Counted from the stretch's first letter, positions 1 to 21,178 are shown. The stretch: DNA of 64,000 nucleotides from Planctomycetota bacterium (GCA_024229395.1 JAAESM010000050.1:250758-314757), one strand, 5' to 3'. Notes: a model not told the origin generated them from the letters alone. A program made the numbers and translations.

Positions 1-263
1 TGCGCCGTGGTCATGGGCACTTGAGTCTGGTTGCGGTAACCGAAGGCGTCGCGCAGACGATCGGCTTCGCCTGGGAACAAATCGCTCCACACCAAGGTGT
101 AGCGGCCGCCATCACGAGCAGTAGTCAGCATGAAGCCATCGAGGTCATGCTCGACGATCGCCCCCACCAACATGCGGCCGTCGCGGAGACGCACCACTTG
201 ATCGCCGCCATCTTGAGGCATGGCAGGTAGTAGCAGGGTGGTTAACAGAAGTGGAAGGATCAT
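1..263 (-). CDS. hypothetical secreted protein, N-terminal part only (runs off the window); last visible gene of the pseudopilin operon
   Basis: ATG at 263 (cat 261-263), 2 nt after the stop of the upstream gene. The minus-strand frame is open to base 1. Hand translation: MILPLLLTTLLLPAMPQDGGDQVVRLRDGRMLVGAIVEHDLDGFMLTTARDGGRYTLVWSDLF..., with a signal-peptide-like N-terminus. Absent from the ORF track because it has no stop in the window. Confidence 0.4.
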   Translation of the reverse strand, partial: MILPLLLTTLLLPAMPQDGGDQVVRLRDGRMLVGAIVEHDLDGFMLTTARDGGRYTLVWSDLFPGEADRLRDAFGYRNQTQVPMTTA

Positions 264-265
264 GA

Positions 266-709
266 TCATGGCCGCTTGGTGCGTCGCTCGATGGGAACAT
301 CCCTTTCAAGCATAAAGGAAACACGCGTGAGCACGCGCTCTGGTGACTTGCGGTAGAAACGCAATTCTGCCCGACGTAAAGCCGGGTTGTCGCCGGGAGG
401 CCGCACGATCAAGTCGAAACGGTATCCAGACGCGCCTGGCACCTCGGTGCCAGTGTAGGTACGTAAGCCGGTGGGTGCACCGGATTCGTCTAGCAACCAC
501 GCATCGCGGCGTAACTCGGCGATGAGCGGTTCGATGGCGGGCGCCAGTTCGGCGCGCACGCGAGCACTTTGTTCGAGGTTGCCACCGACTTGGAACAAGC
601 CCAAGATGGCAGTGATGCCGAACATGAAGATCGCAATCGCGATAATGACTTCAAGGATGGTGAAGCCCGACGCCTTGCGTTTTGCGATGGTTGCGTTGAC
701 GGAGTTCAT
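266..709 (-). CDS. minor pseudopilin, GspI-like (prepilin-type N-terminal cleavage/methylation domain)
   Basis: N-terminus KRKASGFTILEVIIAIAIFMFGITAILGLF matches the prepilin G|FT(L/I)xE motif plus hydrophobic helix. The size (147 aa) is typical of GspI. ATG at 709 overlaps the upstream TGA (TGATG). Confidence 0.65.
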   Translation of the reverse strand: MNSVNATIAKRKASGFTILEVIIAIAIFMFGITAILGLFQVGGNLEQSARVRAELAPAIEPLIAELRRDAWLLDESGAPTGLRTYTGTEVPGASGYRFDLIVRPPGDNPALRRAELRFYRKSPERVLTRVSFMLERDVPIERRTKRP

Positions 710-1620
710 CAAGGAAGCCTCCGGCCGTCGGCAGCGATGCGGTTGGTGCTCTGATAACGCGACGGCATGTAGACCGGTGTGCGTTGCGAATATTCGCCTG
801 GCAGCGTGTCGCGTTCACCGCGCGCGCTGAAGCGAATGTTCGGGAAGCTGCCGTCGATGCGTACCCATTCGTTGCCAACCAGCGCATATTCCGGAAGGCG
901 AATCGGCGCGATACCACGCAAGCGCACGGCTTCCGGTTCGCCGGCGATTGGATCATCGAGGTTGGCGGGCTGCTTGCGCGCGTTACCGGAAACGAACTCA
1001 ATGGTGAGATCGATCTTCGACGGGAAGTCGAAAGGCATGTCGTTATCGATGCGCACGTTCTTGGTCAGCTGACCATCGGTGTCGTGGGCAATAAACTCAG
1101 TCCACAATACGCCGTCCATCACCGTCAGGCCTTCGTCGCCACGGATCATCTCTTGCAGGGTGCCGCGATCACGCACGCTGCGCTGCGGGTTCTCGATGTT
1201 GGTAAAACGCACCAAGCGCCCGAAACGGGAATTGGGGTCTTCCGGCACGATGGTCCACATGATTTCAACAGGCTCGCGGTTGGTCGGATCCACATCCGTC
1301 AGGGCAGCACCATCAGCTAGGAAACGAATGCGTGGCAGATACCAAGCCGCAACGCCTTCACTGGCGGAGCGCGCTTCCCATTGATCGACGATCAGCCAAC
1401 CGCGGGAACCGGTGTGCAGAGCATTCAAGTCGCCACGGAAACGTTCCACTGCCGCAGCGAAGACCAAGTCCCCCTGGCCGCGGCGCTCACCGCTCGACCA
1501 CAGGTTGACCACCGAGTTCATCACTTGCATGACGAAGGCCGACAGGATGCCGAACAAGGCCAGTGCGATGACCAGTTCCAGCAAGGTCATGCCGCGACGC
1601 TTCTGATCGCTGCGGATCAT
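709..1620 (-). CDS. minor pseudopilin, GspJ-like (prepilin-type N-terminal domain)
   Basis: N-terminus KRRGMTLLELVIALALFGILSAFVMQV is a prepilin motif. There is an ATGA overlap with the upstream gene at 1617-1620. The position between the K-like and I-like genes fits GspJ. Confidence 0.6.
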   Translation of the reverse strand: MIRSDQKRRGMTLLELVIALALFGILSAFVMQVMNSVVNLWSSGERRGQGDLVFAAAVERFRGDLNALHTGSRGWLIVDQWEARSASEGVAAWYLPRIRFLADGAALTDVDPTNREPVEIMWTIVPEDPNSRFGRLVRFTNIENPQRSVRDRGTLQEMIRGDEGLTVMDGVLWTEFIAHDTDGQLTKNVRIDNDMPFDFPSKIDLTIEFVSGNARKQPANLDDPIAGEPEAVRLRGIAPIRLPEYALVGNEWVRIDGSFPNIRFSARGERDTLPGEYSQRTPVYMPSRYQSTNRIAADGRRLP

Positions 1621-4600
1621 TCGACCACCTCCTTGCTGTTCTCAATCCGGGTGCTTGCCCAGTAATCGAACATGACATGACGCAGACGCGGCTCCATCGT
1701 CCAGCCGGTCGCGGTGTAGGTGGTTGGGTCGAATGCACCCGGTCCCCAATCGAACATGAAGCGCGCATCAAGGCGATCGCTGTTCAGCTGCAGGGTCTGC
1801 GGTCCACCACTTGCGGTGCGCCCGCGGTGGAACTCCAGCAAGCCTGGCGTGGTGCGTGGATCGTCTTCCCAGTTCGCCAAACCAGCACGCACCAAAGCGC
1901 GCACAGTAATCGAGTTATCCGGCAGTTCGGCTTGATACGACATGGATTCCCAATGCGCTTGCGGTTCTTCGAAGCTCACTTGGTACCACGCGCCGACCCC
2001 GCTATCGGAGCGTGGGATGTAGTTATCCATCCAACGGTTGGGGAAGGAAATCGCCACCGCGCCATCGGCGTGGTTGGCGGGATCGGTTCCGAAACGTCCG
2101 CGCAACAAGCCCATACCAGGGTCATCGTCGCCGTTGTCACGCGTACGCGGCATTCCAACAAAACCATTGCCGCGCATAGGTGCGTGCATCAACTCCTGAC
2201 CAATCAGAATCATGCCGCTGGTGGCGAAGCCGTTGGTGTTGGTCAGTGGCACAACTTCGCTGCCGATGCCCATACCGCCGTTAAGCGCAACAGATGCACG
2301 GCCATCAACCATCCACACCCGTGCGCCGCGACCATGGCCGCGTGGCTCGGTGCCCATCAATCCACGACCATCCGGTGCGATGGTGATCTCACCATTGCCG
2401 ACGTCGATCTGGTTGTAAGCGATACGCTCGCCATCAATATCGAGGATGCCCGACTGTGGCATGAACCCAAGGTAAGTTCCTTGCGCCACACCCGGCGAAC
2501 CCCAGCGCCGCCCATCCAACGAAAGTTGGCTGCGGTTAACTGTTATGTTGCCAGAGTAGGTGGCATCAAAATCCATTTCCAGGATCATTGCGCCACGCGC
2601 GAAGGCACCTTGCACATTGCCCATGCCGCCGACGTTATGCAGTGAGACTTCATCGACCATGCCGCTGAACTCCGGCGCTGCGCCACTGGTATCGCCACCA
2701 ACAATGAAGTTGGCCAGATTCGCAGGGCGTTCATGGTTCGGGAACTTGCAGATTCGTGGGAACTCGCGCCAGTCGGAATAGAACAGCGGGTTCTGCACCA
2801 GGGTCTGGTAGTCGAACGAGGTCACCGGGTTGACGGTCGAATCCTCGAAGGCAATGTAGGTGCAGCGCGATTCCAGGCGGCCGTCGTTCTCGCGCACAGC
2901 CGTAGCCCATTGCACGGTGTACCAGAATGGCGTTCCGGTGTTGGTTGGATCCATGACCGCAACGCGATCCAAACGACCGACATAACCTTCGCCAGGAATG
3001 CTGTTGAGTGCTTGCGCTCCTGAGAACGGGCGGATGGTCTTGAACACCGGCACGGCACGATCGCCGGCAGTGTGCGGGTGGTCGTGGGTGCCCATGACGC
3101 CACGGAACTGTAAGCGCCATGACCGCTGCCAAATGGTCTCGCCAGCGACATCGGTGTCCCGCCCCTCTTCGGCAATGCCGATGGTCGGGCGCGTTGCCCA
3201 GATATCCTCTGGGTCTTGTTGCAGCGCCGGTGGCTCTGGAATGTCGTAGAACGCAGGCGACACGATCAACGGTGCGTTAGGGGCATTCGGTGCATCGGGC
3301 CCTGACGGCGCAGGCGGAGCGGATGGAGGCTCAACGTCGTCTTCTTCGTCATCCCAAACCAAGCCTTCCTGCATGCGATACAGAGCACCCCATTCATCGC
3401 GCACGAAGCAACCATCAATGATGTTGTCGTAACGCACCCACTCGGTGTTGGCAGGGTCACCGGCAGCGGCGATCTGCACGATCTCCGAGCGGTTCGGCAA
3501 GCCCGGTGAGTAGGTCACGTCGGTGGCGCCGGTGGTCTTCAATGAGATCGGCACGATGTAGACATCGAGCTGGTGGATCTCACTGAGCATGCGCCCATCG
3601 GCGAGCTGTAGGTTGTCCTCCCAGTTGGTGACGAAGGTGTTGCCAGCTTCATTGAAGACGCCATCGGTGGCTTCGACCACGCCAGGAGTCTGCACGTTGC
3701 GCTCGGACAAGGTTAGCGTGGTGCCGGTGCGCGAGCTGTAACGCACGACTTCCCAACCACCGATGCGGCTTTCGTCCTCGGCGTTGCGCAGTGCCAACGG
3801 GCCTTGGAACATGAAGGCGAAACCGCCGTCACTCTGGAAGGCTTCGGCGTAGTACTCATCCTCGGCGTCGAAACGCATCAATGGGCTTAGTTCGATCGGG
3901 CCGAGGTAATCGCCGGAGATGCCTTGGCCGAGTCCGATTGGCACCAACAACGGTGGAATCAAGGCGATGATCTCATCGATACCGGTGGTGCAAGTTGCGA
4001 TCGACCATGGGCCGACTTCGCCCGACAAGGTATGGCCGCCTGGTGGCAAGCGCTCAAGGATGGCGGCCGAGTAACCGTACAACTCCACGCCCGCACCCAG
4101 CGGATGCTCAGTACCGGTAGATAAGGCGAGCAAGTCGGTGCCTTCGCGCAAGGAGCGACCACCAATGAACAAGCCAGGATCCCAATCAAGCACGAAGGAG
4201 TTGGAAGTCTTGGAACTGTAATCGACCAGCTCATTGCCGATCCGTAAAACGCCGCGGTCCGGGAAACCTTCGGTGCCTTCGACGTAAATCTCACCACCCG
4301 CGGCGGCGGTGAAGGCATCCATGGCTGCAGTCAGATGGGTGAAGCCATCGATCTCGCCACGTGGGACGCCGTCGATGCAGACCTGAATGCCGCGCGCCGA
4401 TTGGTTGCGCATGGTCACCGAGATGTGGAACCATCGATTGGTCAGCGCGTACTCGGCAAAATCCAAGCGCTGGGTGACCGCCTCCTGCAGCGAGAATGGA
4501 TCACCTGGATCTTCGCCCATGGTGCTCCAGCAGCGCACGATTAACTCGTTGTTTTCAATCGCCACACTGACGCGGTTGCGATCGGTCTCAAAACCGGCAA

Positions 4601-6548
4601 GGTCAAAGACATGGCCGTTGTTGAGGTTGTCAGCACGGAACCAACCCTGGAAGTGCAGCGGCTCAATATTGCTGATGGAATTGCCTTCGCCGACCCCCCA
4701 CTCATTGAGCGGCTGGTTGTACGGGCCGAACTCATTGATGTTGCGACCAAGCGGAGAGGTTTCGTAATCGAAGTGTTCGGTACGCCCACGACCATTGTGC
4801 GGGAATGTATCGCTTTCGCGCGCCGGCACCGGCACCACGGAGCTGACTTCATAATCTTTCTCTGGCAGGCTGCGACCAGGGCGTGTCAAAGCCCCCACTT
4901 GCATGGTTGGGCCGTTCATCGGCTGGCCGAACTCGTTGGTAAAACTGCCCATCGCGTTTGGCAAGGTCGTCACGCCATGCAAGCCGCGCGACCAACGTCC
5001 GAAGTCTTCAAAGACCTCTTGGTTGTTCAGCAAGGAGACAGCTGCATCCGACTGCGCACTCGGGGCGGCATGCACGCGTTGCTCATAGGAGGCGCGCGCC
5101 AAGGTGCGGCCGAGTCGCGAGCGGATCGCGGCATTGACGCGATGCTGATAGAGGTTGCCGGTGCGATAACCGAACGATGTGGTGCTCTGGCGCAGAGTGC
5201 CGTTGTTCGGATCGATGCTGTTGACGTAGATTGCCCAGGCATCGATGTCGGTCAAGCCGCCTTCGTCAGCCATCGGTCCAAGTACGCGGCCCCACAAATC
5301 GGCTGGACCCTGCAGCGGTCGCGCAGCCATCACACGTTCGGTGAAAGCGCGTGCTTCGGTCTCACTGACCCATTCGCGACCACGTGCACCACTGGTCTGA
5401 CGATCACTGATCACCGGCGGATTGCCGCGGAAGGCCAAGCCCGTGACCATGGCAGTGATGATCTCTGGCTGACATGCGTTGATGTCAATCGGCTCGCGGC
5501 GCAACGGATGGATGCGCGTTTGAAACGGCACGAACCAAGTTGGCACCGGCGCGGACAACAACAAGCGCCCTCCATTGGCCACCATCACCAGACGGTCGAC
5601 GGCATCGATCAAATCGCCGTCTTCCGGGATGATGCGCACCACGGTTCCGGCGTTGAACAAAGTGGCGTCGCTGATCGAGATGATCTCGGGGTTCTCCGGA
5701 TCGATCGCGCGCGTCAGCCAACCGCCGGGTTCCCATTCGGCACTGCCATAGGAACCAGTGTCCAAACTGGAGTAGGACTGGATGCGACTCTTATCGGCCT
5801 CGGGTAAGACTTCGGCATCGGCAGTGCCAAAGTTGAAGTTCAGCATGTCGCCGAAGAACTCCGGTGCATGATGTTGGCCGGTCTGGAAGCGCGACAGCAC
5901 CAAAGCTTGCACACGCGGATCCTGAATCTCGCGGCCACGTCGGAAGCGCGTTTGATCAAGGTCTTCTGGCGCATCCAAGTCTTGTTGGACTTCGGTGAAC
6001 TTACGTGCCTCGATGCCACCATAGACCACCCACTTCGAACCGATCCACAACAGGCCGGTTTCGGGGAAGCCGTCGGTAGAGGTGACTTGTAATTCGCTGT
6101 CGCCGTGTGCTGCATCGGCGGTCAGGAAGCACGGGTGGATCAAGTTCTGCAGCAGCATCACCGGCGCTGTGGCCAAAGAGACCTTCGACTGCAGGCTTTC
6201 GATTTCAGCGCCCCATGCTTCGGTGGAACCTAACCAATCATCGCCAAGGCTATGCGGCAACGGTCCAAGAATGCTGCCATCCCATTCATCGGTGGAATCC
6301 CAAAGCGGCGTCGGATCCATCGATGGATGGCTCAAGGCTTCGTGGAAGGCGGTCACGCGCGAAGCCGAATCGACCGCAATGCGTGCGCGCGAACGGTCAT
6401 AAGTTTCGCTGGCCGCTTCCGAACGCATACGACTGGCGAACAGGAAAGGAACGCCGAGCGAGAACAGAACTGCCAACGACATCAACACGATCAGCAACGC
6501 GGCGCCACGTCGGCGGCCGACGGCGGTGGACATCCATGCGGTGCTCAT
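1617..6548 (-). CDS. giant (1643 aa) GspK-like pseudopilin-tip protein with an internal LamG/ConA-like region
   Basis: N-terminus GRRRGAALLIVLMSLAVLFSLGVPFLF resembles the GspK N-terminus (RGxALLxVL...). The segment WFHISVTMRNQSARGIQVCIDGVPRGEIDG looks like a LamG jelly-roll. There is a Pro/Ala-rich linker, PSAPPAPSGPDAPNAPNAP. ATGA overlaps occur at both ends (6545-6548 and 1617-1620). Confidence 0.55.
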   Translation of the reverse strand: MSTAWMSTAVGRRRGAALLIVLMSLAVLFSLGVPFLFASRMRSEAASETYDRSRARIAVDSASRVTAFHEALSHPSMDPTPLWDSTDEWDGSILGPLPHSLGDDWLGSTEAWGAEIESLQSKVSLATAPVMLLQNLIHPCFLTADAAHGDSELQVTSTDGFPETGLLWIGSKWVVYGGIEARKFTEVQQDLDAPEDLDQTRFRRGREIQDPRVQALVLSRFQTGQHHAPEFFGDMLNFNFGTADAEVLPEADKSRIQSYSSLDTGSYGSAEWEPGGWLTRAIDPENPEIISISDATLFNAGTVVRIIPEDGDLIDAVDRLVMVANGGRLLLSAPVPTWFVPFQTRIHPLRREPIDINACQPEIITAMVTGLAFRGNPPVISDRQTSGARGREWVSETEARAFTERVMAARPLQGPADLWGRVLGPMADEGGLTDIDAWAIYVNSIDPNNGTLRQSTTSFGYRTGNLYQHRVNAAIRSRLGRTLARASYEQRVHAAPSAQSDAAVSLLNNQEVFEDFGRWSRGLHGVTTLPNAMGSFTNEFGQPMNGPTMQVGALTRPGRSLPEKDYEVSSVVPVPARESDTFPHNGRGRTEHFDYETSPLGRNINEFGPYNQPLNEWGVGEGNSISNIEPLHFQGWFRADNLNNGHVFDLAGFETDRNRVSVAIENNELIVRCWSTMGEDPGDPFSLQEAVTQRLDFAEYALTNRWFHISVTMRNQSARGIQVCIDGVPRGEIDGFTHLTAAMDAFTAAAGGEIYVEGTEGFPDRGVLRIGNELVDYSSKTSNSFVLDWDPGLFIGGRSLREGTDLLALSTGTEHPLGAGVELYGYSAAILERLPPGGHTLSGEVGPWSIATCTTGIDEIIALIPPLLVPIGLGQGISGDYLGPIELSPLMRFDAEDEYYAEAFQSDGGFAFMFQGPLALRNAEDESRIGGWEVVRYSSRTGTTLTLSERNVQTPGVVEATDGVFNEAGNTFVTNWEDNLQLADGRMLSEIHQLDVYIVPISLKTTGATDVTYSPGLPNRSEIVQIAAAGDPANTEWVRYDNIIDGCFVRDEWGALYRMQEGLVWDDEEDDVEPPSAPPAPSGPDAPNAPNAPLIVSPAFYDIPEPPALQQDPEDIWATRPTIGIAEEGRDTDVAGETIWQRSWRLQFRGVMGTHDHPHTAGDRAVPVFKTIRPFSGAQALNSIPGEGYVGRLDRVAVMDPTNTGTPFWYTVQWATAVRENDGRLESRCTYIAFEDSTVNPVTSFDYQTLVQNPLFYSDWREFPRICKFPNHERPANLANFIVGGDTSGAAPEFSGMVDEVSLHNVGGMGNVQGAFARGAMILEMDFDATYSGNITVNRSQLSLDGRRWGSPGVAQGTYLGFMPQSGILDIDGERIAYNQIDVGNGEITIAPDGRGLMGTEPRGHGRGARVWMVDGRASVALNGGMGIGSEVVPLTNTNGFATSGMILIGQELMHAPMRGNGFVGMPRTRDNGDDDPGMGLLRGRFGTDPANHADGAVAISFPNRWMDNYIPRSDSGVGAWYQVSFEEPQAHWESMSYQAELPDNSITVRALVRAGLANWEDDPRTTPGLLEFHRGRTASGGPQTLQLNSDRLDARFMFDWGPGAFDPTTYTATGWTMEPRLRHVMFDYWASTRIENSKEVVE

Positions 6549-7549
6549 AGCGAGGCCTCCTGGGTGAAGCGTCCGACCACGAAGGAGCCGATTTCTTCAT
6601 CCAACTCAAGGATTACGACCGGCACCGAGCTCGCATGTGCTGCGGCATCGAGCATGCCGTTGCGGTCGAACAACAAGGGCAGACCAGCCGGCAGGATCTC
6701 GACGTTTTCGGGGACTTCTGGTCCCAACTCACCAACACGAGCCCACACGGTGAACTCATCAACCAGCCCAATCCAGCCATCCTCGTCGTTGCCAAGAATC
6801 GGTATCGAGCGCGAGGCCTGCAGAATCGGTGGAATCTCCATGCGCGCGACTTCCACCCCATTGATGGCCATCACGAAGCTTTGTTCGGCAGCGACCAATT
6901 TCAGATGCTGCCACTGATTGATCTTCAGGCTATCGGCCGGTGACTCCAGCAACATGTCCTGGAAGAAATCACCGTCACCGGCGCGTACTGTGGCCGCAAC
7001 CACTCCGGAGCGACGGATCTCGATGTTCAGGAAGCCATCCCAACCGAGCAAGTCGCCGCCGTTACCGAGCTCACTGAAGATATCCATATCGAGGCCGAAG
7101 CCTTGGGTCAGATCCGGCATACCGCGCCCTTCGATACTAATGGTGCCGCCTTCGCGCAAGTCACCGCAAGTACCGAAGCGTCCGGTAGCGCCAATCGCGG
7201 CCGAACCAGTGAACTGCAGTCCTTCACGCAACTGGAAGTCTGGTTCGAAGGAAGCCTCGAGTGCACGTCGGTAGACGAAGCGCATCAGACGGCGTTCCCG
7301 CTCTGCAGTGGCTGGCATCTGCTTGACGCTGACTGGATGACCAGAGATGCGTGCGCGATCACGACTGCCTTCCAGGAAAGTCTCGATACTGACTCGCAAG
7401 CCACGGTTACCGGGGTCGAAGCGATCGATGCCGGCGACACTGACTCCGGCCACCACTCCCAAGACCACCATCACGATAATCAACTCCAGCAGGGTGAAGC
7501 CTGCGGAGCGTGAGCGTGATGAGGATTTGAGCAAGGGAGTCACCGACAT
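6545..7549 (-). CDS. GspH-like pseudopilin fused to a LamG-like (concanavalin A-like lectin) domain
   Basis: The motif RSRSAGFTLLELIIVMVVLGVVAGVSVAG is a prepilin N-terminus. The C-terminal part, WQHLKLVAAEQSFVMAINGVEVARME...GWIGLVDEFTVW, matches the LamG pattern (W.H...DG...G.iDE..vW). ATG verified at 7549. Confidence 0.6.
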   Translation of the reverse strand: MSVTPLLKSSSRSRSAGFTLLELIIVMVVLGVVAGVSVAGIDRFDPGNRGLRVSIETFLEGSRDRARISGHPVSVKQMPATAERERRLMRFVYRRALEASFEPDFQLREGLQFTGSAAIGATGRFGTCGDLREGGTISIEGRGMPDLTQGFGLDMDIFSELGNGGDLLGWDGFLNIEIRRSGVVAATVRAGDGDFFQDMLLESPADSLKINQWQHLKLVAAEQSFVMAINGVEVARMEIPPILQASRSIPILGNDEDGWIGLVDEFTVWARVGELGPEVPENVEILPAGLPLLFDRNGMLDAAAHASSVPVVILELDEEIGSFVVGRFTQEASL

Positions 7550-7555
7550 CCTGAA

Positions 7556-8167
7556 TCAATCCGTGAACGAGTAGAGGTCGTCGTCGGTGTTGAAGTAGCC
7601 GTCTGGTCCAGCCGAGATGAGCTGAAAATCATTCGGCTCATGGAAGCTGTTGGTCACACTGCTGCGCTGTGCGAACACCACATCTTCTTCGAAGTAGTCA
7701 TCTTCACCAGCTAAGGCCACGCAGCCGTTCTCATCGGCATAGTGCAAGCTCTCGAAGTAAAGAATCGGGTTGCCCCATTCATCGCCGATCTCGAACAAAG
7801 CGCGCGTGCCGAGCATGGTCAGGTCGCGATTAGCCTCATCGCCATCGGTGTTGACCAGCCATTCTTGCGACGGGCGCGAGCCGGTGTACTTGGAATCGAA
7901 CAAGGCCAGAAAAAGTGCCTCGGCGTTGGCGTTCTTGGCATTCATGGCCACGCCTTTCATCAGGCGGTCATCGGGGTACTCGCCTTCTATGTTGCGGTAC
8001 TCGCGAATCATCGCCTCCAGCGAACGCAGCTTGGCTTGTGCCGCCTTGGTCTTGCTATCGCCGAAGATGTTGCCGCCGAAGCCAACGAACACGGCGCTCA
8101 ACACACCGATGATGACCAGCACGATCATCAACTCCAACAAGGTAAATCCGTTCGCTCTGTTTTTCAT
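7556..8167 (-). CDS. gspG: major pseudopilin, GspG-like
   Basis: The motif MKNRANGFTLLELMIVLVIIGVLSAV is a canonical prepilin N-terminus. The C-terminal SAGPDGYFNTDDDLYSF resembles the GspG Ca-binding tail. It is the first pseudopilin in the operon and has an ATGA overlap with the TPR gene at 8164-8167. Confidence 0.7.
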   Translation of the reverse strand: MKNRANGFTLLELMIVLVIIGVLSAVFVGFGGNIFGDSKTKAAQAKLRSLEAMIREYRNIEGEYPDDRLMKGVAMNAKNANAEALFLALFDSKYTGSRPSQEWLVNTDGDEANRDLTMLGTRALFEIGDEWGNPILYFESLHYADENGCVALAGEDDYFEEDVVFAQRSSVTNSFHEPNDFQLISAGPDGYFNTDDDLYSFTD

Positions 8168-10863
8168 TGCTGGGCAAAAATCATCTCGACGTTATCGATG
8201 CTGGCATTGACATCCAAGGCACCAGAAGTTGCGACGAACAAGCCGCATGCCATCCGCCCGGTCGGGTTACGCAAGTTCGAGACCTGCTCGGAAAACAGGA
8301 CCTCGTCGTTAAACCACACGGTCAGCAACGGTTGCGTGCCTTCGCGGTTGACGCTGAAACGCACCAAGCCACTCTCACCTTCACGCAACTGGAAACGCGT
8401 GACCACTGGCGGATCGACACGCGAGCCGCGCGACATTTCGTAAGTGATTTTGCTCTCGCGATCGCGGAAGACGCGGAAGTACCAAGTCTCCTTGTTGCGG
8501 TTCTGCAAGGCGATGTAAGCACCGGCCTCGCCACGGTGGCCACTACCGATGGTCAAATCGGTGGTGAAGTCACGGAAGGAAATACCGGGTACGGTGCGGT
8601 AGGCCTTGGTTTCACCGACGCCGGAGTGACGTCCGCTGATCCAGAAGGCACCATCTTCAAGGCGTGGCTCCACGCCCAAACGTGCAGCCTCTTGAGTATC
8701 CCAACCTGCACGCAATCGCTTGCCCTCGAAGGCATCGACCCATAGGCGCAACTTGGCATGCTCTTCAACCCGCGCTTGCCAGATCTGCGCGTATTCCGCT
8801 TGTGGATGCCCTTCGGTGTCACGCAAGCTGTCTTGCAAGTAAGCGAACTCGGCGATGGTGGCATCGAAATCACCCTCACGGTAATAGACCATTCCTTTGG
8901 CATTACGCGCGGCGTGCAGTTCGGCATTCATCGACAAGGCTTGGTCAAAAGAACCCATAGCCAACTCCAACTCACCCAAGGCAAGGAAGTTCAAGCCACG
9001 ACGCAAAGTCAGGCCAGCCCAAGCGGGTGCTGATTGCGAGCGCAGCACGCCCTCAGGGAACAACTCTTCCAAGCGGCGGAAAGCCACTTCGGCCTGCACT
9101 TGCGAACCATCGCTGTACAGCAAGGAGCTGAACTCGGCGAGAACTGCAGCACAGTTCGGCTGAATCCGAACCAAGGACTGCAGCTCTTCACGAGCAGCTT
9201 CACTGTCGCCATCGCGCGCCGCCCAGTTGGCCTTCAAGTAACGCGAGTAGAAGTGTTGCGGCGACAAGTCCAAGGCATCGGCCAGGGCGACATCGGCGAG
9301 TTCGCGCTCACCCATGCGGTCCAACCAGAAAGCCATCGCCGATAGCGCTGGAGCGGCATCGAATGGCTGAGCGGCAGCGGCGGCGCGCAAGTCACGAATG
9401 ACTTCACCGGCAGAACCACCGTCGGCGCCTTCGGAGATGCCTCGCAAGTACAACAAGGTGGCGTCGGTGCCGAACTCTTGCAGTGCCGACGTAGCTTGCT
9501 CGCTCGCTTCACTGAAGTTACCGGCCAGATAAGCGGCTGCGATTGCACCCCGACGTGCATTCAGACCTGCACTCTTATTGGTGTTTGCTGCACGTTCGGC
9601 TTCGGCGTAGGCCGTCGATGCGGCCGCCCAAGAACCGGAACGCAATGCTGCTTCGCCAAGCGCCAAGCTGTTGCGCAAGCCCGAGTTCGAGTTGCGATGC
9701 TTCTGCAAGCCCATGGCGCGTTCGAGCAGGTCACGGCCTTCCGCAACACGATCGCTATCCAAGAACAAGATACCCAGCTCCAACAACGGCGCTGGATCTC
9801 CATCATTGAGATCTGCTGCAGCCTGAAGCTGTGGCTCCGCCACTTCATCAAGATCAAGGCTGCGTAGGATCATGCCCATGCGCACGCGTGGTGCGCTGCG
9901 CTTGTCGAAACGGCCTTGCGGCACCTCGATGCCGAAGTCTTCGACCTGCAGCGGCAGGCGATCGCCGCTCAAGGTGGCGTACAAAGCGAAGGCGCGGTCC
10001 AAGTCGAAGGTACGCTCCCACACCTCACCGAGCAACATCCAGTTGTCGATGTCATCCTGATCCAAATTGACGCTGGCGATCGCTAGCTCTTCGGCGTAGA
10101 CAAAGGCACCTGGCACGGCCAAGCCTTGGTCCAACAACCAACGCACGTAGTCGCGCAAAGGAGCGATGCGCGAAGGTGACAGGCGTGCGCGCTGCTCACG
10201 CACTCCGAGTTCTACCTCGTTATGGAGGTTCTCAGCGAATCCAAAGGTGGTGTATTCCTCGGCAGTGAATGGGCGCAAGCCAAAACGCTCGGTACCGGTG
10301 CGTGGGTTGACCTCTTGGAACTGCAGGGTTTCGCCCTTCTTGTAGTCATAACGGTTTTCACCAACCAAGTGGCCGTAGAGAATCGTCAACGGATCGAGAC
10401 GCACCCAATCGTAAGAAGCCTTGTAGCCGTCGGCTTCGTCTTGGAAGACGCTGGCTAGGTCTTCATCGCTGCTGCCCGCGGTGTCTTCTACCGTGCCAGC
10501 ATCGACCAAGTCATTCAAGTCACCCAACAACGATGGGGCCAATTGGAACAGATGCTCACTCCAATAGCTCGGACCGGAATCCGGCATCGGTGGAGGCATC
10601 AACACGGCAAGTGGTGCCAACTGCGGGTCTGGCAACGGCAATGGCTCCAAAGGCTCATCGGCGGCCGGGCGCTTGAACAAGTCACGTCCGCCTGGACCAC
10701 TTCCCAAGGACAACACCGGGTCCTCGGAACCCATGCGGAATTCTTCAAGAGCTTGCGGGTTCGGCGTGCGAGCTTTGCGCGGCGCCTTTTCCTGCAACAA
10801 ACTGTAGGTCATCAAGCCGAGAATCAGCAAGACCACCACGAACATGATTGGTTCTCTTTTCAC
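8164..10863 (-). CDS. membrane-anchored TPR-repeat protein (899 aa) with a C-terminal jelly-roll-like domain
   Basis: N-terminal TM helix IMFVVVLLILGLMTYSLL. The long central region has Ala/Leu-rich 34-aa-type repeats (AFALYATL..., ALGEAALRSGSWAAASTAYAEA..., NAKGMVYYREGDFDATIAEFAY). The C-terminal ~200 aa is beta-rich (WYFRVFRDRESKITYEM...LLTVWFNDEVLF). Confidence 0.7.
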   Translation of the reverse strand: MKREPIMFVVVLLILGLMTYSLLQEKAPRKARTPNPQALEEFRMGSEDPVLSLGSGPGGRDLFKRPAADEPLEPLPLPDPQLAPLAVLMPPPMPDSGPSYWSEHLFQLAPSLLGDLNDLVDAGTVEDTAGSSDEDLASVFQDEADGYKASYDWVRLDPLTILYGHLVGENRYDYKKGETLQFQEVNPRTGTERFGLRPFTAEEYTTFGFAENLHNEVELGVREQRARLSPSRIAPLRDYVRWLLDQGLAVPGAFVYAEELAIASVNLDQDDIDNWMLLGEVWERTFDLDRAFALYATLSGDRLPLQVEDFGIEVPQGRFDKRSAPRVRMGMILRSLDLDEVAEPQLQAAADLNDGDPAPLLELGILFLDSDRVAEGRDLLERAMGLQKHRNSNSGLRNSLALGEAALRSGSWAAASTAYAEAERAANTNKSAGLNARRGAIAAAYLAGNFSEASEQATSALQEFGTDATLLYLRGISEGADGGSAGEVIRDLRAAAAAQPFDAAPALSAMAFWLDRMGERELADVALADALDLSPQHFYSRYLKANWAARDGDSEAAREELQSLVRIQPNCAAVLAEFSSLLYSDGSQVQAEVAFRRLEELFPEGVLRSQSAPAWAGLTLRRGLNFLALGELELAMGSFDQALSMNAELHAARNAKGMVYYREGDFDATIAEFAYLQDSLRDTEGHPQAEYAQIWQARVEEHAKLRLWVDAFEGKRLRAGWDTQEAARLGVEPRLEDGAFWISGRHSGVGETKAYRTVPGISFRDFTTDLTIGSGHRGEAGAYIALQNRNKETWYFRVFRDRESKITYEMSRGSRVDPPVVTRFQLREGESGLVRFSVNREGTQPLLTVWFNDEVLFSEQVSNLRNPTGRMACGLFVATSGALDVNASIDNVEMIFAQQ

Positions 10864-11642
10864 TGCAGGTCCTCCCCTTCTTGCGGCGCGGGAAGGGCGC
10901 CAACTCCAAACTCAAGAAGCAGTTTCTGCTCCATACGCTTCTCATTTCGCGGCAAGACTTCCAAACCCATTAGCCCCAATGGACGCCCGGCTTGTTGTTC
11001 GGCCAGCAGCGCGTTCAAAAACGGGGCGATACTGGTGCGCGCGAAAGTTACCTCCAAGGTAATCGGCGTGATGTCCAACGGCGAAACGTTGCGACCACTC
11101 CGACGCGAACGCTTTTGTGCGATGCGGATCTTGTCGACCTCGGAGGCTCCGAAATCCACTGCCAAGTGCACGACACGATCGACCACATCCAAACCGCGCA
11201 ACACGCGATCGATTTGCTGCGGTTGCGATGGCGATACCGGTGGCAAGCCAAGGGAATCATCGACTTCACAGTTGCGTCGCAAAGCCCAACCGATCAGTTC
11301 GTCACGCATCTCACCTGTCAGCGAGATGTAATGCTGTGCTGCCGATCCTCCAGGTGGAACCTGAAAGCGTTCGCGGAAGGCCGGCAGATTGCGCTCAGCC
11401 AACAGCTCATTGCGATCCTGCAACATGCTCAAGCGCTCTTTCAATTCGGAGACTTGATTGGCTGCATAAAGGTTGTTGCTTGCCATCGTTCGCGAGGCTC
11501 TCGAAATCGAGATCCGCGACCTGCTCAAGCGATCCTTGGCGCCGCCGCCGGTGAAGGCGAGCAGGATGAAGAACACGACCAGTCCACCGGCCATGCCCAT
11601 GATGAAACGACGATGCGTTTGCCAGAATGCGTCAAAGTTCAT
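10860..11642 (-). CDS. PilO/GspM-like inner-membrane assembly protein
   Basis: A single N-terminal TM helix (IMGMAGGLVVFFILLAFTG) is followed by a coiled-coil-like stretch (VSELKERLSMLQDRNELLAERN) and a ~150-aa periplasmic domain. It lies immediately after the PilM-PilN fusion, with ATGA overlaps at both ends. Confidence 0.45.
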   Translation of the reverse strand: MNFDAFWQTHRRFIMGMAGGLVVFFILLAFTGGGAKDRLSRSRISISRASRTMASNNLYAANQVSELKERLSMLQDRNELLAERNLPAFRERFQVPPGGSAAQHYISLTGEMRDELIGWALRRNCEVDDSLGLPPVSPSQPQQIDRVLRGLDVVDRVVHLAVDFGASEVDKIRIAQKRSRRSGRNVSPLDITPITLEVTFARTSIAPFLNALLAEQQAGRPLGLMGLEVLPRNEKRMEQKLLLEFGVGALPAPQEGEDLQ

Positions 11643-13288
11643 TGCATGTCCTCCTCGCCTTCTTCAGAGGGATTTCGTTCTTCGAGGAGTTGAGCGCGCA
11701 TTGACCATTCCAGGACCTTGCCGCGCGGATTCGAACTGGGTTGCAGGTAAGTCTTATCTGCAAGCATGCCTTCCAACGCGACAACGAACACGCCGAAAGC
11801 GGAACTTGCCGCACGCACGTCGTCTTCGGCGCGACCTTCGACCTGCAGAATCGGAACGGGTTGATCCTCTCGCTCCCATTCCTTGCCATCGGTCATCGTC
11901 ACACGCACCTGCTCGACCCACAAGCTGTCAGGCAAGGAAGTACGCAGGTGATCGATGAACTCCGCAGCACTGCGGTTGACGGCGAAACGCGCTTCCAAGT
12001 CGCGGTAAAGCAACTCTTGTTCGCGAATCTGTTCGAGCAACTCCACGGCTTCGGAGTTACTGGTATCGAGAGCCTTCTGGGTGCGCTTGGTGGCAGCCGA
12101 TGCGGTGGCCGCTTCATCAGCCAGCCCACCCATCACGATGAAGTTCACCGCCAAGAAAATCACCGCGGCAGCACCCATCAGGATGTTGAAGATGCCACGC
12201 TCGGCAAAGGCCTTCTTCTTGCGCGCGGCGGCAGTCAGGATCTCCAGGGCGTAGAGGTCTGGGTCGGCGGCACTGAGGGCCAATCCGAGCGCGACCGCAG
12301 CGCCTGGGCCATCGGCTTCAAGCTGATCGGCTTCGTCTTCGGGCAACTCGCTTGGATCGATCATCTCTGCCGGGTTCCAAACACTGACCGGCACGCGCAT
12401 GCGATCGTTCAAGAACTCCACCAGGCCGTTGGCGTTGGCGCCGCCGCCTGTGAGCAGTACGCGATCCAAGTTCAACTCGCTCAAGCGCGTTTGTGCCTTA
12501 CACAAAGTGACCACACCACCAAGCAAGGTAGGCAGGCTTTCGTACAGAGGCAGCAGTGGGCGCGTGACGCGTTCCGCATCGGTGCCCAATCGTTGGCCGG
12601 TAGCCAGGCGCAAATCAAGGTGCTTATGGATTAAGCCCTTGGCGCGTTCGCCATCAATGCCAAGTTGCGCTGCCAAAGTCTGGTCGCGCTTCTCCAAGCT
12701 GGTCGTGACCGAACGTGCGAAGTACAGGTCGGTGCCATTGACCAACGCTAGGTCCAAGGTGCCTTTGCCAAGGCTGGCGATCAAGGTGGTGGATTGCTCG
12801 TGATCCCCCAAGGCCAGGTAACAGTTGTACAAGGCAATCGCGTTCGGTGAGAAAGCCTTGACGGCAATCCCGGGAATGCCACTCATGGTCTCATCGAGCA
12901 GGTCTTCGCGCACCAGGCTCAACAGCATGGTGTCCTCGTCGTCGAGCCCCTTCGGCACCGGCAACAAGTTGTAGGACGACGCCATCGAGGAACCGGAACG
13001 GCCTTCGATCTCGCGGATCTCAAAATCCATCAGGCGCTCCAGGCGCCAGTCCTCTACCGCCGGCACAGGCAAGTAGCGCATCATCAGGTCGGCGCCGGTC
13101 AAACCGACGTGCACCGAGCCGGAGCGTTTGGCACCACTGAATACCGCACGCGCGGCTTCCACTGGAGTTTCGCCACCTTCTGGGGCAGCGGCCAAGTAGC
13201 GCTTCAGGGTGTGGGCTCCCTTGCGCGAGTCCACCATGGCAAGGCGGACCAACGAGTGTCCTAAATCAATTCCGCAGCCACTAGCCAT
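11639..13288 (-). CDS. PilM-PilN fusion (GspL-like actin-fold assembly ATPase-like protein plus TM/periplasmic part)
   Basis: MASGCGIDLGHSLVRLAMVD is a PilM/FtsA-like phosphate-1 motif, and LLTGGGANANGL is an actin-fold ADENOSINE-like motif. These are followed by a TM helix (IFNILMGAAAVIFLAVNFIVMGGL) and a PilN-like coiled coil. The start was moved to the ATG at 13288, which overlaps the FHA gene stop (TGATG). Confidence 0.65.
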   Translation of the reverse strand: MASGCGIDLGHSLVRLAMVDSRKGAHTLKRYLAAAPEGGETPVEAARAVFSGAKRSGSVHVGLTGADLMMRYLPVPAVEDWRLERLMDFEIREIEGRSGSSMASSYNLLPVPKGLDDEDTMLLSLVREDLLDETMSGIPGIAVKAFSPNAIALYNCYLALGDHEQSTTLIASLGKGTLDLALVNGTDLYFARSVTTSLEKRDQTLAAQLGIDGERAKGLIHKHLDLRLATGQRLGTDAERVTRPLLPLYESLPTLLGGVVTLCKAQTRLSELNLDRVLLTGGGANANGLVEFLNDRMRVPVSVWNPAEMIDPSELPEDEADQLEADGPGAAVALGLALSAADPDLYALEILTAAARKKKAFAERGIFNILMGAAAVIFLAVNFIVMGGLADEAATASAATKRTQKALDTSNSEAVELLEQIREQELLYRDLEARFAVNRSAAEFIDHLRTSLPDSLWVEQVRVTMTDGKEWEREDQPVPILQVEGRAEDDVRAASSAFGVFVVALEGMLADKTYLQPSSNPRGKVLEWSMRAQLLEERNPSEEGEEDMQ

Positions 13289-15063
13289 CAGTTCACCTCC
13301 TTCAGCCAAGCGGCAAGTACGGGGTAAGAAGTCGTCAGCGCACCTTGCAGACGTTCGCGGTATTCCGAGGCAGCCTCTTGGCTACCTTGTGCGGCTTGTT
13401 CCGCGCCGATCTCCAAGTCAGCGGCAAGCGCGGTGGCTTGCGGTTCGACGACCGTTCCGGGATAACGCGAAGCCAAGTCGCGTGCATCGTTGGCGAGTTG
13501 CGACATCAGCGAACCAGCACCCACGAAGACCGCGCCACTTGCTTGAATCTGCAAGTTCGCCAAGTCTGCGCGGCCGCGCTCCAAAGCCTCTTGTGAACGC
13601 AACAAAGCCTCTTGCACCTTCAACTCATCGAGTGGCAGATCGCGCAGTAGTTCCGCAGCGGATGCCAATAGTTGACGATCGTTTCCTTCACGCTCGGCGC
13701 GGGTGATCGCTTGAGAAAGACGTGCCGCTTGGGTCATGGCCTCGGCCAAATCCCAATGCAGATGGAATGGCTCAGTAGTGGTCAGACTCGCGCCTCCATC
13801 TTCAAAGCGAATACTGCTGGCTTGATCCAAGGTCAGCAGCAGGCGCGTGGCGCCACCGCCGAGCAAGATGCCAGGGCTGGATTCGACGATCACGCCAGGA
13901 GCGAGACCGACTGGGCCGCCGTCGGCCAACAGCAGGAAGGCGCCTGCTTCCAACAAATCGCCAGAGGCACTGAAGACCACGCTGGCTTCACCATTCGGAG
14001 TGAAGAGCAAGCCGCCGGTTTCGTCACTCCAAGTGCCGTTCTGGCCGCGCGCGGTCAGCAAAGCACCAGAAGAGTTCGACATCATCAAGTTGGCGCCTTC
14101 ATGCAGTGCCGTGCCTATTGGCGACGAGACTTTCTGCGGCGCGCGGGAAGTGGTTTCCACGCTCAACTCGCTAAGACTGCCTTGGCCTTCCAAACGAAGC
14201 GCAATCTGAAACCATTCAGCATCTGCGGGCAGGCTCAAGGTCACGTTGCCTGCTGCTAGGTCGCCGCCTTCCCATGTGCCGACGGGCTGGCTGCTCTCTT
14301 CGCCTTTACCCCAGCTGATCTGAGGAAAGACTTGGTTGCCCGAAACGCTAGCCGAGATCTCTAAAGCAGTATCCATCATAGAGAAGTTACGCCCCAAACG
14401 CGCGGTCGAACGACCACTGCCTGCACTCAAGCGCCCTTCTTCGATGGTTGTGCCTTTACTCAGACTCCATGCCTCTGGTTCTTGGAAATCTCCAAGGCCA
14501 TCGATGGCATCGAGGGCTTGGCTACTGACGCCGCCGTTGGCAGCTGCCGTATTGCCGCTGCCTGGATTGCCTTCTTCAGCGGCACCTCCGCGACCGAAGG
14601 TCCACCAAGCGCCGCCGCCTGCGGCCAGGACCAACACCACGCCAAGCGCCATCTGCAGTGGACCACCTTTGCGCTTACTACTCATGGCGGCCTCGCGGGC
14701 GCGGCGATGGATATCAGAATCATCGTCTTCCACCTCGCTGCTGGCCGTGCTGGACGAGCTGGACGCTCCGCCGCCCTCTGGAACAAGGCGCAATACGCAC
14801 TTGCCGAGTTTAATCTCGCTGCCTGGGAACCATTCGCCCTCGGCGACTTGCACGCCGCCGGACCAGGTACCGTTGGTGGAGCCGAGGTCGCGGAAGCGGA
14901 TTTCGCCCGCCGCGCTGACCGTCAGCTCGAGGTGTCGGCCTGAAACGGATTCAACACCCAAGACGCGGCTGTTCGAAGCAGCACGACCAAGGGTATGTGT
15001 TCCAACGCCCAGATCAAAAATCTGACCGCTTTCAGGACCACTTAGGATCTCAATTTGAACCAT
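13288..15063 (-). CDS. FHA-domain protein with a central TM helix and a large periplasmic domain; first gene of the pseudopilus operon
   Basis: The N-terminus MVQIEILSGPESGQIFDLGVGTHTLGRAASNSRVLGVESVSGRHLELT...FRDLGSTNGTWSGG carries the FHA signature (GR...S..H......D.GS.NGT). A Ser-rich linker follows, then a TM helix (LQMALGVVLVLAAGGGAWW). I prefer the ATG at 15063 (cat 15061-63) over the TTG at 15099. Confidence 0.7.
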   Translation of the reverse strand: MVQIEILSGPESGQIFDLGVGTHTLGRAASNSRVLGVESVSGRHLELTVSAAGEIRFRDLGSTNGTWSGGVQVAEGEWFPGSEIKLGKCVLRLVPEGGGASSSSSTASSEVEDDDSDIHRRAREAAMSSKRKGGPLQMALGVVLVLAAGGGAWWTFGRGGAAEEGNPGSGNTAAANGGVSSQALDAIDGLGDFQEPEAWSLSKGTTIEEGRLSAGSGRSTARLGRNFSMMDTALEISASVSGNQVFPQISWGKGEESSQPVGTWEGGDLAAGNVTLSLPADAEWFQIALRLEGQGSLSELSVETTSRAPQKVSSPIGTALHEGANLMMSNSSGALLTARGQNGTWSDETGGLLFTPNGEASVVFSASGDLLEAGAFLLLADGGPVGLAPGVIVESSPGILLGGGATRLLLTLDQASSIRFEDGGASLTTTEPFHLHWDLAEAMTQAARLSQAITRAEREGNDRQLLASAAELLRDLPLDELKVQEALLRSQEALERGRADLANLQIQASGAVFVGAGSLMSQLANDARDLASRYPGTVVEPQATALAADLEIGAEQAAQGSQEAASEYRERLQGALTTSYPVLAAWLKEVN

Positions 15064-15186
15064 GTGGGAAAGGTGCGTCCCGGCGTGACTCCGGGACAAG
15101 GGAGTCTAGGCCACCCCGACTTCACGGGCAAACCGGGCAGCTTATAGATAGGGCCAACCCCGGCGACAGTAACCTGTTACGTGCCA

Positions 15187-15909
15187 ATGCGATTTTTCTT
15201 CCTTGCCACAGCACCGCAGAGCACCGACGGACCTTGGAACCCTGGTCCGGAGCTCGGCCGCCATCTGCGTGCTCTGAGATTTCAGCCCGGCGACAAGCTG
15301 CTGCTGCTACCGCCAAGCGGAGATGCCATCGTTGCCGTATTCCAGAGTCCCAAGTTGGTGGAGCTAGAGGGCACTCAGCCTCGGCCCGTCCTACCCTTAC
15401 TGGGTCTGACCTTGGCCAGCGCTTGGCCCAAGGGTTCACGCGGCGATGAGCTTGTGCGGCGGGCCACAGAGAGTGGCGTAACCCATTTAGCACCAATATC
15501 TTGCGAACGCAGCGTGGTTGGCCGAGGAGACTTCAGCCCCTCCCGCTTGCAGCGCTGGTCCAAGATTGCGGCAGAGGTTTGCCAACAAAGCCGACGCCCT
15601 GAGCCGCCCCAAATCAGCTCCAATCCAGTGCCATTGGCGGAGATTCGCAGCCTTGCCCCCGACGCACACCCGATTGCTTTGGTGCCCGGAACTTGGCCGT
15701 TGAGCATGGAATTGGACCTGCACCAACCCAGCTCGGTGCTGATTGCGATCGGTCCAGAAGGTGGTTTCAGCCCCGCCGAAGAAACCATACTGCGGGATTT
15801 GGGCTTCAGTTTCTGCGGTTTGGTCCCGACGATTTTGCGCATTGAGGCCGCTGGTCCGCTGGCGGCAGGAATTTGCCAACATCACTTTTTGTCGCGCCAG
15901 GGTCAGTAA
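15187..15909 (+). CDS. rsmE: 16S rRNA (uracil1498-N3)-methyltransferase RsmE
   Basis: The N-terminus MRFFFL and the C-terminal IAIGPEGGFSPAEETILRDLGFSFCGLVPTILRIEAAGPLAAG match the RsmE SPOUT knot motif (GPEGG...E...LG.RILR.ETA). The ATG at 15187 is preferred over the GTG at 15181. Confidence 0.85.
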   Translation: MRFFFLATAPQSTDGPWNPGPELGRHLRALRFQPGDKLLLLPPSGDAIVAVFQSPKLVELEGTQPRPVLPLLGLTLASAWPKGSRGDELVRRATESGVTHLAPISCERSVVGRGDFSPSRLQRWSKIAAEVCQQSRRPEPPQISSNPVPLAEIRSLAPDAHPIALVPGTWPLSMELDLHQPSSVLIAIGPEGGFSPAEETILRDLGFSFCGLVPTILRIEAAGPLAAGICQHHFLSRQGQ

Positions 15910-15939
15910 ACAGCTCCCTCGACTCAGCGCTTGCTGCAA

Positions 15940-16542: not shown

Positions 16543-16583
16543 ACTGCAGCGATGACGGTCCAGCTGCGCCGCGGTCACGGTCT

Positions 16584-18625: not shown

Positions 18626-18657
18626 TCAGTGCGACTTGGGAACACGAATGCCACAGG

Positions 18658-19665: not shown

Positions 19666-19806
19666 GAAGCTGACATCCTATATCGGCGCTTCCAATGTGC
19701 GAACTTAAGCCGCTCGGCTGAGATTTCTGCGACTCAAGAAACAGTTACGACTTTCCCGAAAAGACCATGACGGCGGGCAACAACCCAAACCGCGGTCCAT
19801 CTTCAA

Positions 19807-21087: not shown

Positions 21088-21178
21088 TCCACCGTCAGGA
21101 AGCGTCCCAACCTCCAGATTCGGCCCCACACGAATCGGGGCGTAACCCAAATCCGCAGACGGGCTATCCTGTGGCCAA

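Follow-up and report, generated by a model that had tools for sequence, protein, structure and literature searches.

What does a gene encode when it stands among prepilin genes and begins like the gene for the small pseudopilus tip subunit GspK, but specifies a product of 1643 amino acids (aa)? The question is raised by a stretch of 64,000 nucleotides from a Planctomycetota bacterium (GCA_024229395.1 JAAESM010000050.1:250758-314757; hereafter the window), the source being an uncultured marine planctomycete. In it, an uninterrupted open reading frame (ORF) runs from ATG to stop at 1617..6548 on the minus strand. A preliminary description, made from the sequence alone, had read it as a GspK-like protein expanded about five-fold; the ORF is there, and the factor is correct, given that E. 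coli K-12 GspK has 327 aa. We consider it reasonably probable that the gene, which is conserved within a lineage of uncultured and for the most part marine Planctomycetota, encodes a minor pilin of the K type (GspK/PilX/PilK class) for a type IV filament machine. The extra residues beyond the GspK core, some 1,300, form lectin-like and phage-tail-like domains, and by analogy with known tip subunits a binding head of very large size is probably found at the end of the fibre.

The gene has the marks of a translated one. An AGGAGG ribosome-binding site lies 6-12 nt before the ATG. This start codon and the stop of the gene upstream overlap in the sequence ATGA, an arrangement typical of translational coupling in operons, so that the giant gene appears to be coupled to its upstream neighbour. 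The GC content is even throughout (0.59-0.61). A search of 5.8 billion proteins returned 57 homologues with identities from 100% down to 26%, nearly all of them 1600-1770 aa long and aligned to the query end to end; those that bear a name are entered as 'hypothetical protein' of Planctomycetota metagenome-assembled genomes (MAGs). In an alignment of 53 sequences the segment lengths are nearly constant, a Pro-rich segment alone varying, between 12 and 93 aa. An exhaustive hidden Markov model (HMM) search with the N-terminal 505 residues gave 3020 representative proteins at E<=1e-3, and 363 clusters (50% identity) match this profile at E<=1e-30. The best 150 matches are mostly 1500-1850 aa, the shorter ones resembling fragments; all are giant relatives, and none of these 150 forms a bridge to ordinary GspKs. 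A scan of one genome per GTDB species, made with the main-clade alignment of the family, placed the gene at 53 loci in MAGs of uncultured Planctomycetota, one of which bears the label Myxococcota. We conclude that the ORF is real, far beyond what chance would give, and that its whole length is conserved among hundreds of proteins of 1500-1850 aa from uncultured Planctomycetota; the size expansion is kept in the orthologues, as the preliminary description had proposed to check.

The case for GspK is built on family profiles, since direct scans of the giant protein were negative. An alignment of the first 505 residues of the family, with the giant protein as its first row, was compared by hhalign with an alignment of 38 diverse GspK proteins (retrieved homologues 286-393 aa), giving a probability of 96.4% and an E value of 1.3e-9. 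The confident part pairs residues 7-127 of the giant protein with GspK 1-108, from alpha1 through the 'D.Q.cFNLN' strand. At a looser posterior threshold the two are collinear up to giant residue 483 and GspK residue 327. This second part, which is of low confidence, leaves out giant residues ~150-345; in it PIDINACQPE..IITAM comes to lie over INvNT..lL.AL, and MAARPLQGP over the 'RP' segment of GspK. Against the single E. coli K-12 GspK, the family N-terminal alignment matches over 57 N-terminal columns (RRRGAALLIVLMSLA against QRGVALLIVLMLLA) at E 7.7e-5. Here the giant RRRG|AALLIVLMSLAVLFSLGVPFLF lines up with QRG|VALLIVLMLLAL of the E. coli protein; it aligns with the GspK profile as well.

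Family models applied to 28 divergent members of the family tell the same story. The NCBIfam model T2SS_GspK (NF037980) is matched by 25 of them, at best with 9.1e-14, through profile positions 1-105 on their first ~130 residues plus a second stretch. Nine of the 28 match Pfam T2SSK (PF03934) at the homologous helix-hairpin-helix segment. P0066, with 24.9 bits, lies just above the gathering score of 24.2 and is the only one to pass it, P0048 reaching 1.3e-3; precomputed PF03934 matches are also present in several further family members. At the level of profiles, homology to GspK is thus established. It extends, in collinear order, over residues 1-495, with low confidence for the second part, and this core is split by an insert of ~220 aa. 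The GspK-like N-terminus claimed in the preliminary description is therefore borne out as to homology, but not as a contiguous domain of ~300 aa.

The protein was modelled with AlphaFold2 (AF2) as two separate halves, residues 1-620 and 591-1643. The first half (mean predicted local distance difference test, pLDDT, 82; predicted TM-score, pTM, 0.81) begins with a 64-residue helix. Its elements follow the order helix 8-71, strand 110-118, beta-rich inserts, four helices in 361-445 and hairpin 466-493, which resembles the 'alpha-domain inserted in pilin sheet' of GspK; identity of the fold is likely on this model. Residues 1-71 (6336..6548; all parts of the gene are on the minus strand) comprise a short basic leader ending in Gly15 and ~20 hydrophobic residues that open the long alpha1 (AALLIVLMSLAVLFSLGVPFLF...; helix 8-71, pLDDT 81-90), as is typical of GspK; the peptide RRRGAALLIVLMSLAVLF at residues 12-29 belongs here. 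The first pilin beta-strand follows with the motif WGAEIESLQSKVSLATAP (residues 110-129, 6162..6221; strand 110-118), the equivalent of 'v.i.D.Q.cFNLN' in the GspK profile. Residues ~350-447 (5208..5501), which contain REPIDINACQPEIITAMVTGL and ARPLQGP, correspond to the helix-hairpin-helix-like portion of the alpha-domain of GspK; helices are predicted at 361-368, 396-409, 415-429 and 434-445 (pLDDT >90), and this is where PF03934 matches in relatives. A beta-hairpin at residues ~452-493 (5070..5195; strands 452-454, 466-476 and 482-493) would complete the pilin-type sheet of the core; hhalign pairs it with the strands at the C-terminus of GspK, in the stretch that is of low confidence.

A further feature separates K-type subunits from their partners. 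Unlike all other pilins and pseudopilins, they have no Glu at mature position +5 (PMC13533445). This position is Ile in the giant protein, and Glu is found there in 0 of 162 long family members, with the position set by a heuristic cleavage-site call. The products of the neighbouring G-, H-, J- and I-position genes all read G|(F/M)T(L/I)(L/I)E, that is, with Glu5 present.

What has been added to the core lies both within it and after it. The insert, at residues ~140-345 (5514..6131), is beta-rich, with AF2 strands in 153-209 and 276-349. Foldseek gave local matches of 80-97 residues between the insert and small beta-barrels, namely those of lambda gpJ and of the N-domains of tailspikes and F1-ATPase. 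A separate observation concerns P0197, an otherwise unrelated giant protein (5123 aa) of a Candidatus Firestonebacteria MAG, which is matched 12 times by positions 135-209 of the N-terminal profile; the small beta-barrel module thus occurs in long tandem arrays outside Planctomycetota as well.

After the core, ~1150 residues are folded, according to the model of the second half (pLDDT 87, pTM 0.83), into well-formed and almost exclusively beta domains. The first, at residues ~620-745 (4314..4691), is a jelly-roll that belongs by predicted fold to the LamG/ConA-like superfamily; it includes WFHISVTMRNQSARGIQVCIDGVPRGE (residues 706-732), from which the preliminary description had already suspected such a domain. 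Pfam Laminin_G_3 (PF13385) covers residues 636-742 with E 1.6e-4 and 22.2 bits, below its gathering score of 27.6, and is matched by 14 of the 28 relatives, at best with 1.4e-8. Foldseek searches of the half-model against the PDB returned the LamG pairs of laminin LG4-5, Gas6 and neurexin, at E values near 1e-4, and the Hc domain of clostridial neurotoxins (BoNT), the whole set spanning E 5.5e-5 to 1e-3. Among predicted viral structures (BFVD) the matches were large phage structural proteins, several of them annotated as ConA-like or LamG, the best at 4.5e-9. TM-scores in both searches were low, as is expected for local domain matches of a multidomain query.

A second theme is a module of ~60 aa, GFPxxG.L.IG.E.I.Y ... 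RG..GT....H..G..V, which emerged from comparing the family profile with itself in hhalign and is present in at least three and up to five copies. The two best-preserved copies stand in tandem at residues 1359-1418 and 1441-1505 (2034..2474; probability 88%, E 3.5e-6). Another, of the form GFPxxG-IGxExIxY ... RGxxGT..H..G..V, occupies residues ~758-826 (4071..4277; match 762-821, probability 50%, E 1.6e-4). A partial first copy sits inside the core insert (GFPETGLLWIGSKWVVYGG at 160-178; match 161-183, E 4e-4), and a further partial match covers residues 1149-1168 (E 8e-3). As to relatives of the added region in phages, six of the 28 family members match Pfam Rcc01698_C, a family of gene transfer agent (GTA) and phage tails, at best with 1.1e-4. 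A PDB sequence-profile search with the full-length profile gave nothing significant, only a weak phage J-protein motif, in which the best module copy resembles a segment of the tip attachment protein J of phage JBD30 (8rk3_o; E 0.16).

Between these domains, residues ~1061-1111 (3216..3368) form an acidic and Pro/Ala-rich segment of variable length that contains PSAPPAPSGPDAPNAPNAP (1073-1091). With pLDDT <50 over residues 1067-1111, it is the sole disordered part of the second half-model besides a weak C-terminal tail, in agreement with the Pro/Ala linker of the preliminary description. The presence of EWVRYD at 1036-1041 on one side and of the partial module match on the other (FRGVMGTHDHPHTAGD at 1148-1163) suggests that this segment may be a loop splitting one module copy, rather than a simple inter-domain tether. 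The protein closes with a beta-sandwich and a 13-residue tail (residues ~1510-1643, 1620..2021), the strands of the sandwich being predicted with pLDDT ~90 (positions 908-1040 of the model). The final ~13 residues are conserved in alignments, yet are modelled at pLDDT 40-66.

The genomic setting is that of a presumed filament operon. All genes in question lie on the minus strand. Upstream part and pilin genes together read FHA/TM protein (transmembrane, TM; 13288..15099), PilM-like protein with a C-terminal TM part (11639..13309; NCBIfam Amuc_1101 family, 1e-19), 260-aa protein (10860..11642), 899-aa TPR protein (8164..10863), G-like and H-like pilin, giant K, and proteins of 303 and 147 aa; the conserved stretch from FHA through TPR spans 8164..15099. 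The 899-aa TPR protein has an N-terminal TM segment, and its C-terminal ~190 residues are beta-rich and by eye jelly-roll-like, with no Pfam family at E<=0.1. The G-like gene (7556..8167) encodes a 203-aa major pilin or pseudopilin (N_methyl 1.6e-8; TIGR01710 gspG 5.6e-11, below the cutoff of that model). The H-like gene (6545..7549) encodes 334 aa with a prepilin N-terminus (N_methyl 1.1e-7; gspH N-terminus 4.6e-6), Glu5 and a LamG domain. Its Laminin_G_3 match of 29.3 bits exceeds the gathering score of 27.6, and the homologue at locus L057 reaches 1.1e-13. In a putative tip complex, two subunits, K and H, would thus bear lectin-type domains.

Downstream of the giant gene, the 'J' position is taken by the 303-aa protein (709..1620; N_methyl 1.7e-7) and the 'I' position by the protein of 147 or 148 aa (266..712; N_methyl 2.1e-6). 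Both carry Glu5, and both are indeed prepilin-type, as the preliminary description had it. The C-terminus of the 303-aa protein (residues ~247-285) ends in a conserved E-W...RG.R.T....H..G..V, and the second half of the ~60-aa module matches it at 261-285 (hhalign, E 1.1e-4); the module thus seems to be common to two subunits of the presumed complex.

The order FHA-PilM-X-TPR-G-H(LamG)-K-J-I is kept in every sufficiently long locus among the 53 MAG loci, with K identity down to 41% (tblastn). The core PilM-X-TPR-G-H-K-J-I is kept around two far more distant relatives (L056 and L057), one of them on a 6.56-Mb contig, so that the synteny holds down to ~26% identity of K.

Several observations weigh against assigning the protein to the K class, or the locus to a filament machine. 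First, neither the giant protein nor its fragments gave a direct match to Pfam T2SSK or N_methyl (IPR012902) or to the NCBIfam GspK model, the thresholds being 130 bits for NF037980 and 24.2 bits for PF03934, and PF21687 was not matched either. NF037980 scores of the relatives do not exceed 48.7 bits, against the equivalog cutoff of 130. Second, when the whole 620-aa model was compared with the PDB by Foldseek, no GspK (3CI0), XcpX (5VTM) or other minor pilin was among the best 50 matches. Only small beta-barrels were among them, none at E<=1e-3, and the structural similarity to GspK/PilX that the preliminary description had set as a check was not seen. When the PDB was searched with the N-terminal sequence profile, the one thing to appear was a type IV pilin N-terminus without significance (E ~0.8-0.9). 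Third, the labels I and J have no basis other than the prepilin N-termini and the place of the genes. When single GspJ and GspI sequences of E. coli are compared by hhalign, the alignment covers only the N-terminal 29 residues, and a 'faint' T2SSJ record for a distant homologue of a downstream gene was not reproduced on rescan. Fourth, no secretin, GspE/PilB, GspF/PilC or prepilin peptidase is encoded in the window or within 10 kb in relatives, the search for GspD/E/F and PilB/C/Q in the window covering all ORFs of at least 200 aa. Fifth, a head of ~120 kDa on the K core would need to pass through an outer-membrane channel.

How far the protein departs from GspK/XcpX (PDB 3CI0, 5VTM; PF21687, PF03934; NF037980) can now be stated. 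Common to both are a leader ending in Gly, an alpha1 that lacks Glu5, the strand motif near the N-terminus, a helix-hairpin-helix segment (INxNTA...L.AL ... RP) with closing strands in collinear order (the latter part at low confidence), and the company of G-, H-, I- and J-type pilin genes. In contrast, GspK proteins have ~300-350 aa, whereas the giant protein is five times larger through the insert in its core and the beta domains after it. The gene order here is G-H-K-J-I instead of G-H-I-J-K. In place of GspC, D, E, F, L and M, none of which occurs in the window or within 10 kb in relatives, PilM-like, FHA and TPR proteins are encoded. The gene is thus not part of a type II secretion system (T2SS) cluster, although G- and H-like and two further prepilin genes are adjacent, and the locus is not a canonical T2SS.

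These facts bear directly on an alternative that we regard as unlikely but worth setting out, namely that the protein caps a strictly periplasmic T2SS-type pseudopilus. Its head would act inside the large planctomycetal periplasm and never be displayed at the surface; it might, for example, recognise or push secretion substrates, or gate the channel. That the nearest sequence family is T2SS GspK, that the major subunit is most similar to GspG, and that no pilus retraction ATPase or secretin was seen near the locus would all suit such a cap, but a platform that is PilM-like/Amuc_1101-like instead of GspL-like, together with the missing GspC, GspD, GspE, GspF and GspM, would not, and adhesive pili are known to carry tip pilins with lectin-type modules (PMC8179133). 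A second alternative, which we hold to be rather improbable, is that a GspK was exapted as a membrane-anchored, glycan-binding protein of the periplasm or surface, its pilin-derived helix serving as a signal anchor without polymerisation. The whole GspK core is conserved, more than the helix alone, the absence of Glu5 is conserved too, and the gene is invariably found among Glu5-bearing pilin genes, translationally coupled; these points oppose exaptation. In its favour are the negative N_methyl and GspK scans of the giant protein, the non-GspK extensions making up ~80% of it, and a synteny with RadC, RsmE and ScpB that is unusually stable for an adhesin locus. Finally, an artefact can be dismissed, be it an assembly chimera, which had been named beforehand as a refuting outcome, or several genes run together; the unusual length is the sole ground of suspicion. 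More than 50 independent MAGs and hundreds of metagenome clusters show one architecture with segment lengths that hardly vary, the composition is even along the gene, and the AF2 models of both halves are confident; the conservation data already refute an artefact.

If the protein is a K-type minor pilin, its mode of action may be sketched from what is known of such subunits. A K subunit without Glu5 is apical, and the I-J-K(-H) initiation complex is nucleated by it; large adhesins come in two forms, docked on K in trans, as PilC/PilY1, or fused to a K-like module in cis, as CpaL (PMC13533445); and pilins with grafted lectin or vWA modules are tip adhesins (PMC8179133, PMC9934059). By analogy with GspK and PilK, the N-terminal helix would insert the giant protein into the inner membrane, and a prepilin peptidase whose gene lies elsewhere would probably process it. 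The protein would then pair with the two downstream pilins and the H-like pilin, so capping an I-J-K complex and priming polymerisation of the 203-aa major pilin. The giant K would stay at the fibre tip and present a head of ~120 kDa rich in lectin-type folds, to which H would add its LamG domain. Both K and H have lectin-type domains, which points to a glycan or a glycosylated surface as the ligand; the fibre would then be adhesive or substrate-capturing, as the preliminary description had supposed, rather than a bare secretion piston.

If exported, a protein of this size would have to be folded, and genes that might assist lie next to the operon. The order continues 3' (gene calls on the 92-kb source contig) with a 494-aa secreted protein, a 320-aa protein resembling peptidyl-prolyl isomerases (PPIases), ScpB and a PpiD-like protein. 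The conserved 494-aa protein is the first gene of this part, starting from about window position 270 on the minus strand; the whole part spans 16280..21381 of locus L001, beyond window position 1. The 320-aa protein matches Rotamase_2 at 6.5e-5, and its homologue at L056 matches Rotamase_3 above threshold. The PpiD-like protein, of 598 aa, has by eye an N-terminal TM segment and a weak Rotamase_2 match (E 0.016). The adjacency of these PPIase-like genes fits the need to fold a large periplasmic or exported protein, and they may be dedicated folding helpers.

Among known systems, three further parallels deserve comment. In type IVa pili (T4aP), a binding protein of more than 100 kDa, PilC/PilY1, sits atop a K-I-J(-H) complex with PilK/PilX (PMC13533445). 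An arrangement of this kind is presumed here, with the difference that the adhesin-sized part is covalently joined to K in cis and shows no homology outside the K core. Homology to PilY1 was considered and rejected, no PilY1/Neisseria_PilC beta-propeller being found in the giant protein (Pfam, E<=0.1), among the families of the 28 relatives or by Foldseek. Closer in design is CpaL of the Caulobacter Tad pilus, of ~600 aa, which combines a pilin-like N-terminal module with a large non-pilin region containing an internal adhesin region (PMC13533445, PMC11870444). It has been proposed to occupy the K position of the tip, as we propose for the giant protein, but it is about three times smaller, belongs to another filament class and carries other added domains. 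CpaL's extreme C-terminus returns as a beta-strand to the pilin module (PMC13533445); the poorly modelled C-terminal tail of the giant protein is compatible with such a strand return, without being evidence for it.

The third parallel is with modular pilins, such as Streptococcus sanguinis PilB with a vWA module and PilC with a ConA-like lectin, CofB and ComZ, in which functional modules including PF13385 are grafted on a pilin and displayed by the filament (PMC8179133, PMC9934059). The giant protein likewise combines a K-type pilin core with modules not specific to pilus biology, but these are both inserted into and appended to the GspK core; the neighbouring 334-aa H-like gene is a textbook modular pilin. 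The largest modular pilin in a 2021 InterPro survey had 860 aa, and that survey required the IPR012902 motif (PMC8179133). The Pfam scan detected no such motif in the giant protein, so the survey would have missed it, as it would K-type pilins like it that lack the motif.

One other very large protein of the PVC (Planctomycetes-Verrucomicrobia-Chlamydiae) superphylum, Verru_Chthon cassette protein A (TIGR02600, model length 1296), was considered. It appears to belong to cassettes with prepilin-type proteins, judging from its name and from the B and D cassette models that weakly match the neighbouring pilins. Five of the 28 relatives match its N-terminus (model positions 1-58) with 18-20 bits against a cutoff of 332. 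Membership was rejected, the giant protein having no match and the relatives matching through the N-terminal helix only, with the remainder unrelated.

Literature searches on planctomycete pseudopilins and on GspK tip complexes gave no description of such a protein, and we regard it as a new and extreme variant of the modular-pilin and tip-adhesin theme. It is the tip subunits that set the binding target of a type IV filament and the moment at which it begins to grow. The known solutions are a small K pilin alone (T2SS), K with a separate PilY1/PilC (T4aP) and the ~600-aa fusion CpaL. The giant family would form the extreme end of this series, at roughly twice the size of the largest modular pilin of the 2021 survey, and it is entirely unannotated despite comprising hundreds of sequence clusters in ocean Planctomycetota. 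It might also serve as a test case for the recent beta-strand-addition model of tip assembly, in which the question would be whether the last pilin strand is internal or comes from the far C-terminus. A domain module common to pilus tips and phage tail tips is a further prospect, to be read with the non-significant J-protein match in mind.

The family also offers a concrete candidate for the binding end of planctomycetal fibres. Such fibres bind dextran, and the uptake system is uncharacterised at the molecular level (Boedeker et al. 2017, PMC5394234). As a speculation to which we attach little weight, the lectin-bearing K and the LamG-bearing H may form the glycan-catching tip of these polysaccharide-binding fibres. 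If this were true, a syntenically fixed, housekeeping type IV filament would act as a 'fishing rod' that captures high-molecular-weight glycans for periplasmic import, and the modules that make up its tip would be receptor-binding ones of a type that phage tails employ as well.

The flanks of the operon are occupied by housekeeping genes (7..1362 of locus L001, 1..814 of L056, window ~15181..16647). RadC and an RsmE-type methyltransferase upstream and ScpB downstream hold the same places around the distant relative P0291 on its 6.56-Mb contig. Synteny with housekeeping genes is unusually stable for a pilus or adhesin locus, and hints at a core, not an accessory, function.

Elsewhere in the window, three ORFs on the minus strand, at 44575..46245, 51309..52220 and 52280..53206 (556, 303 and 308 aa), which Pfam leaves without a match at E<=1e-3, are putative genes. 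On the plus strand, paralogous proteins of 748, 999 and 1022 aa with 4-6 CarboxypepD_reg/prealbumin-like repeats are encoded at 24573..26819, 28188..31187 and 32235..35303, and among them lie genes for an M28 peptidase-PDZ protein and an EamA transporter; the region looks like a cluster of surface or secreted proteins, unrelated to the giant K.

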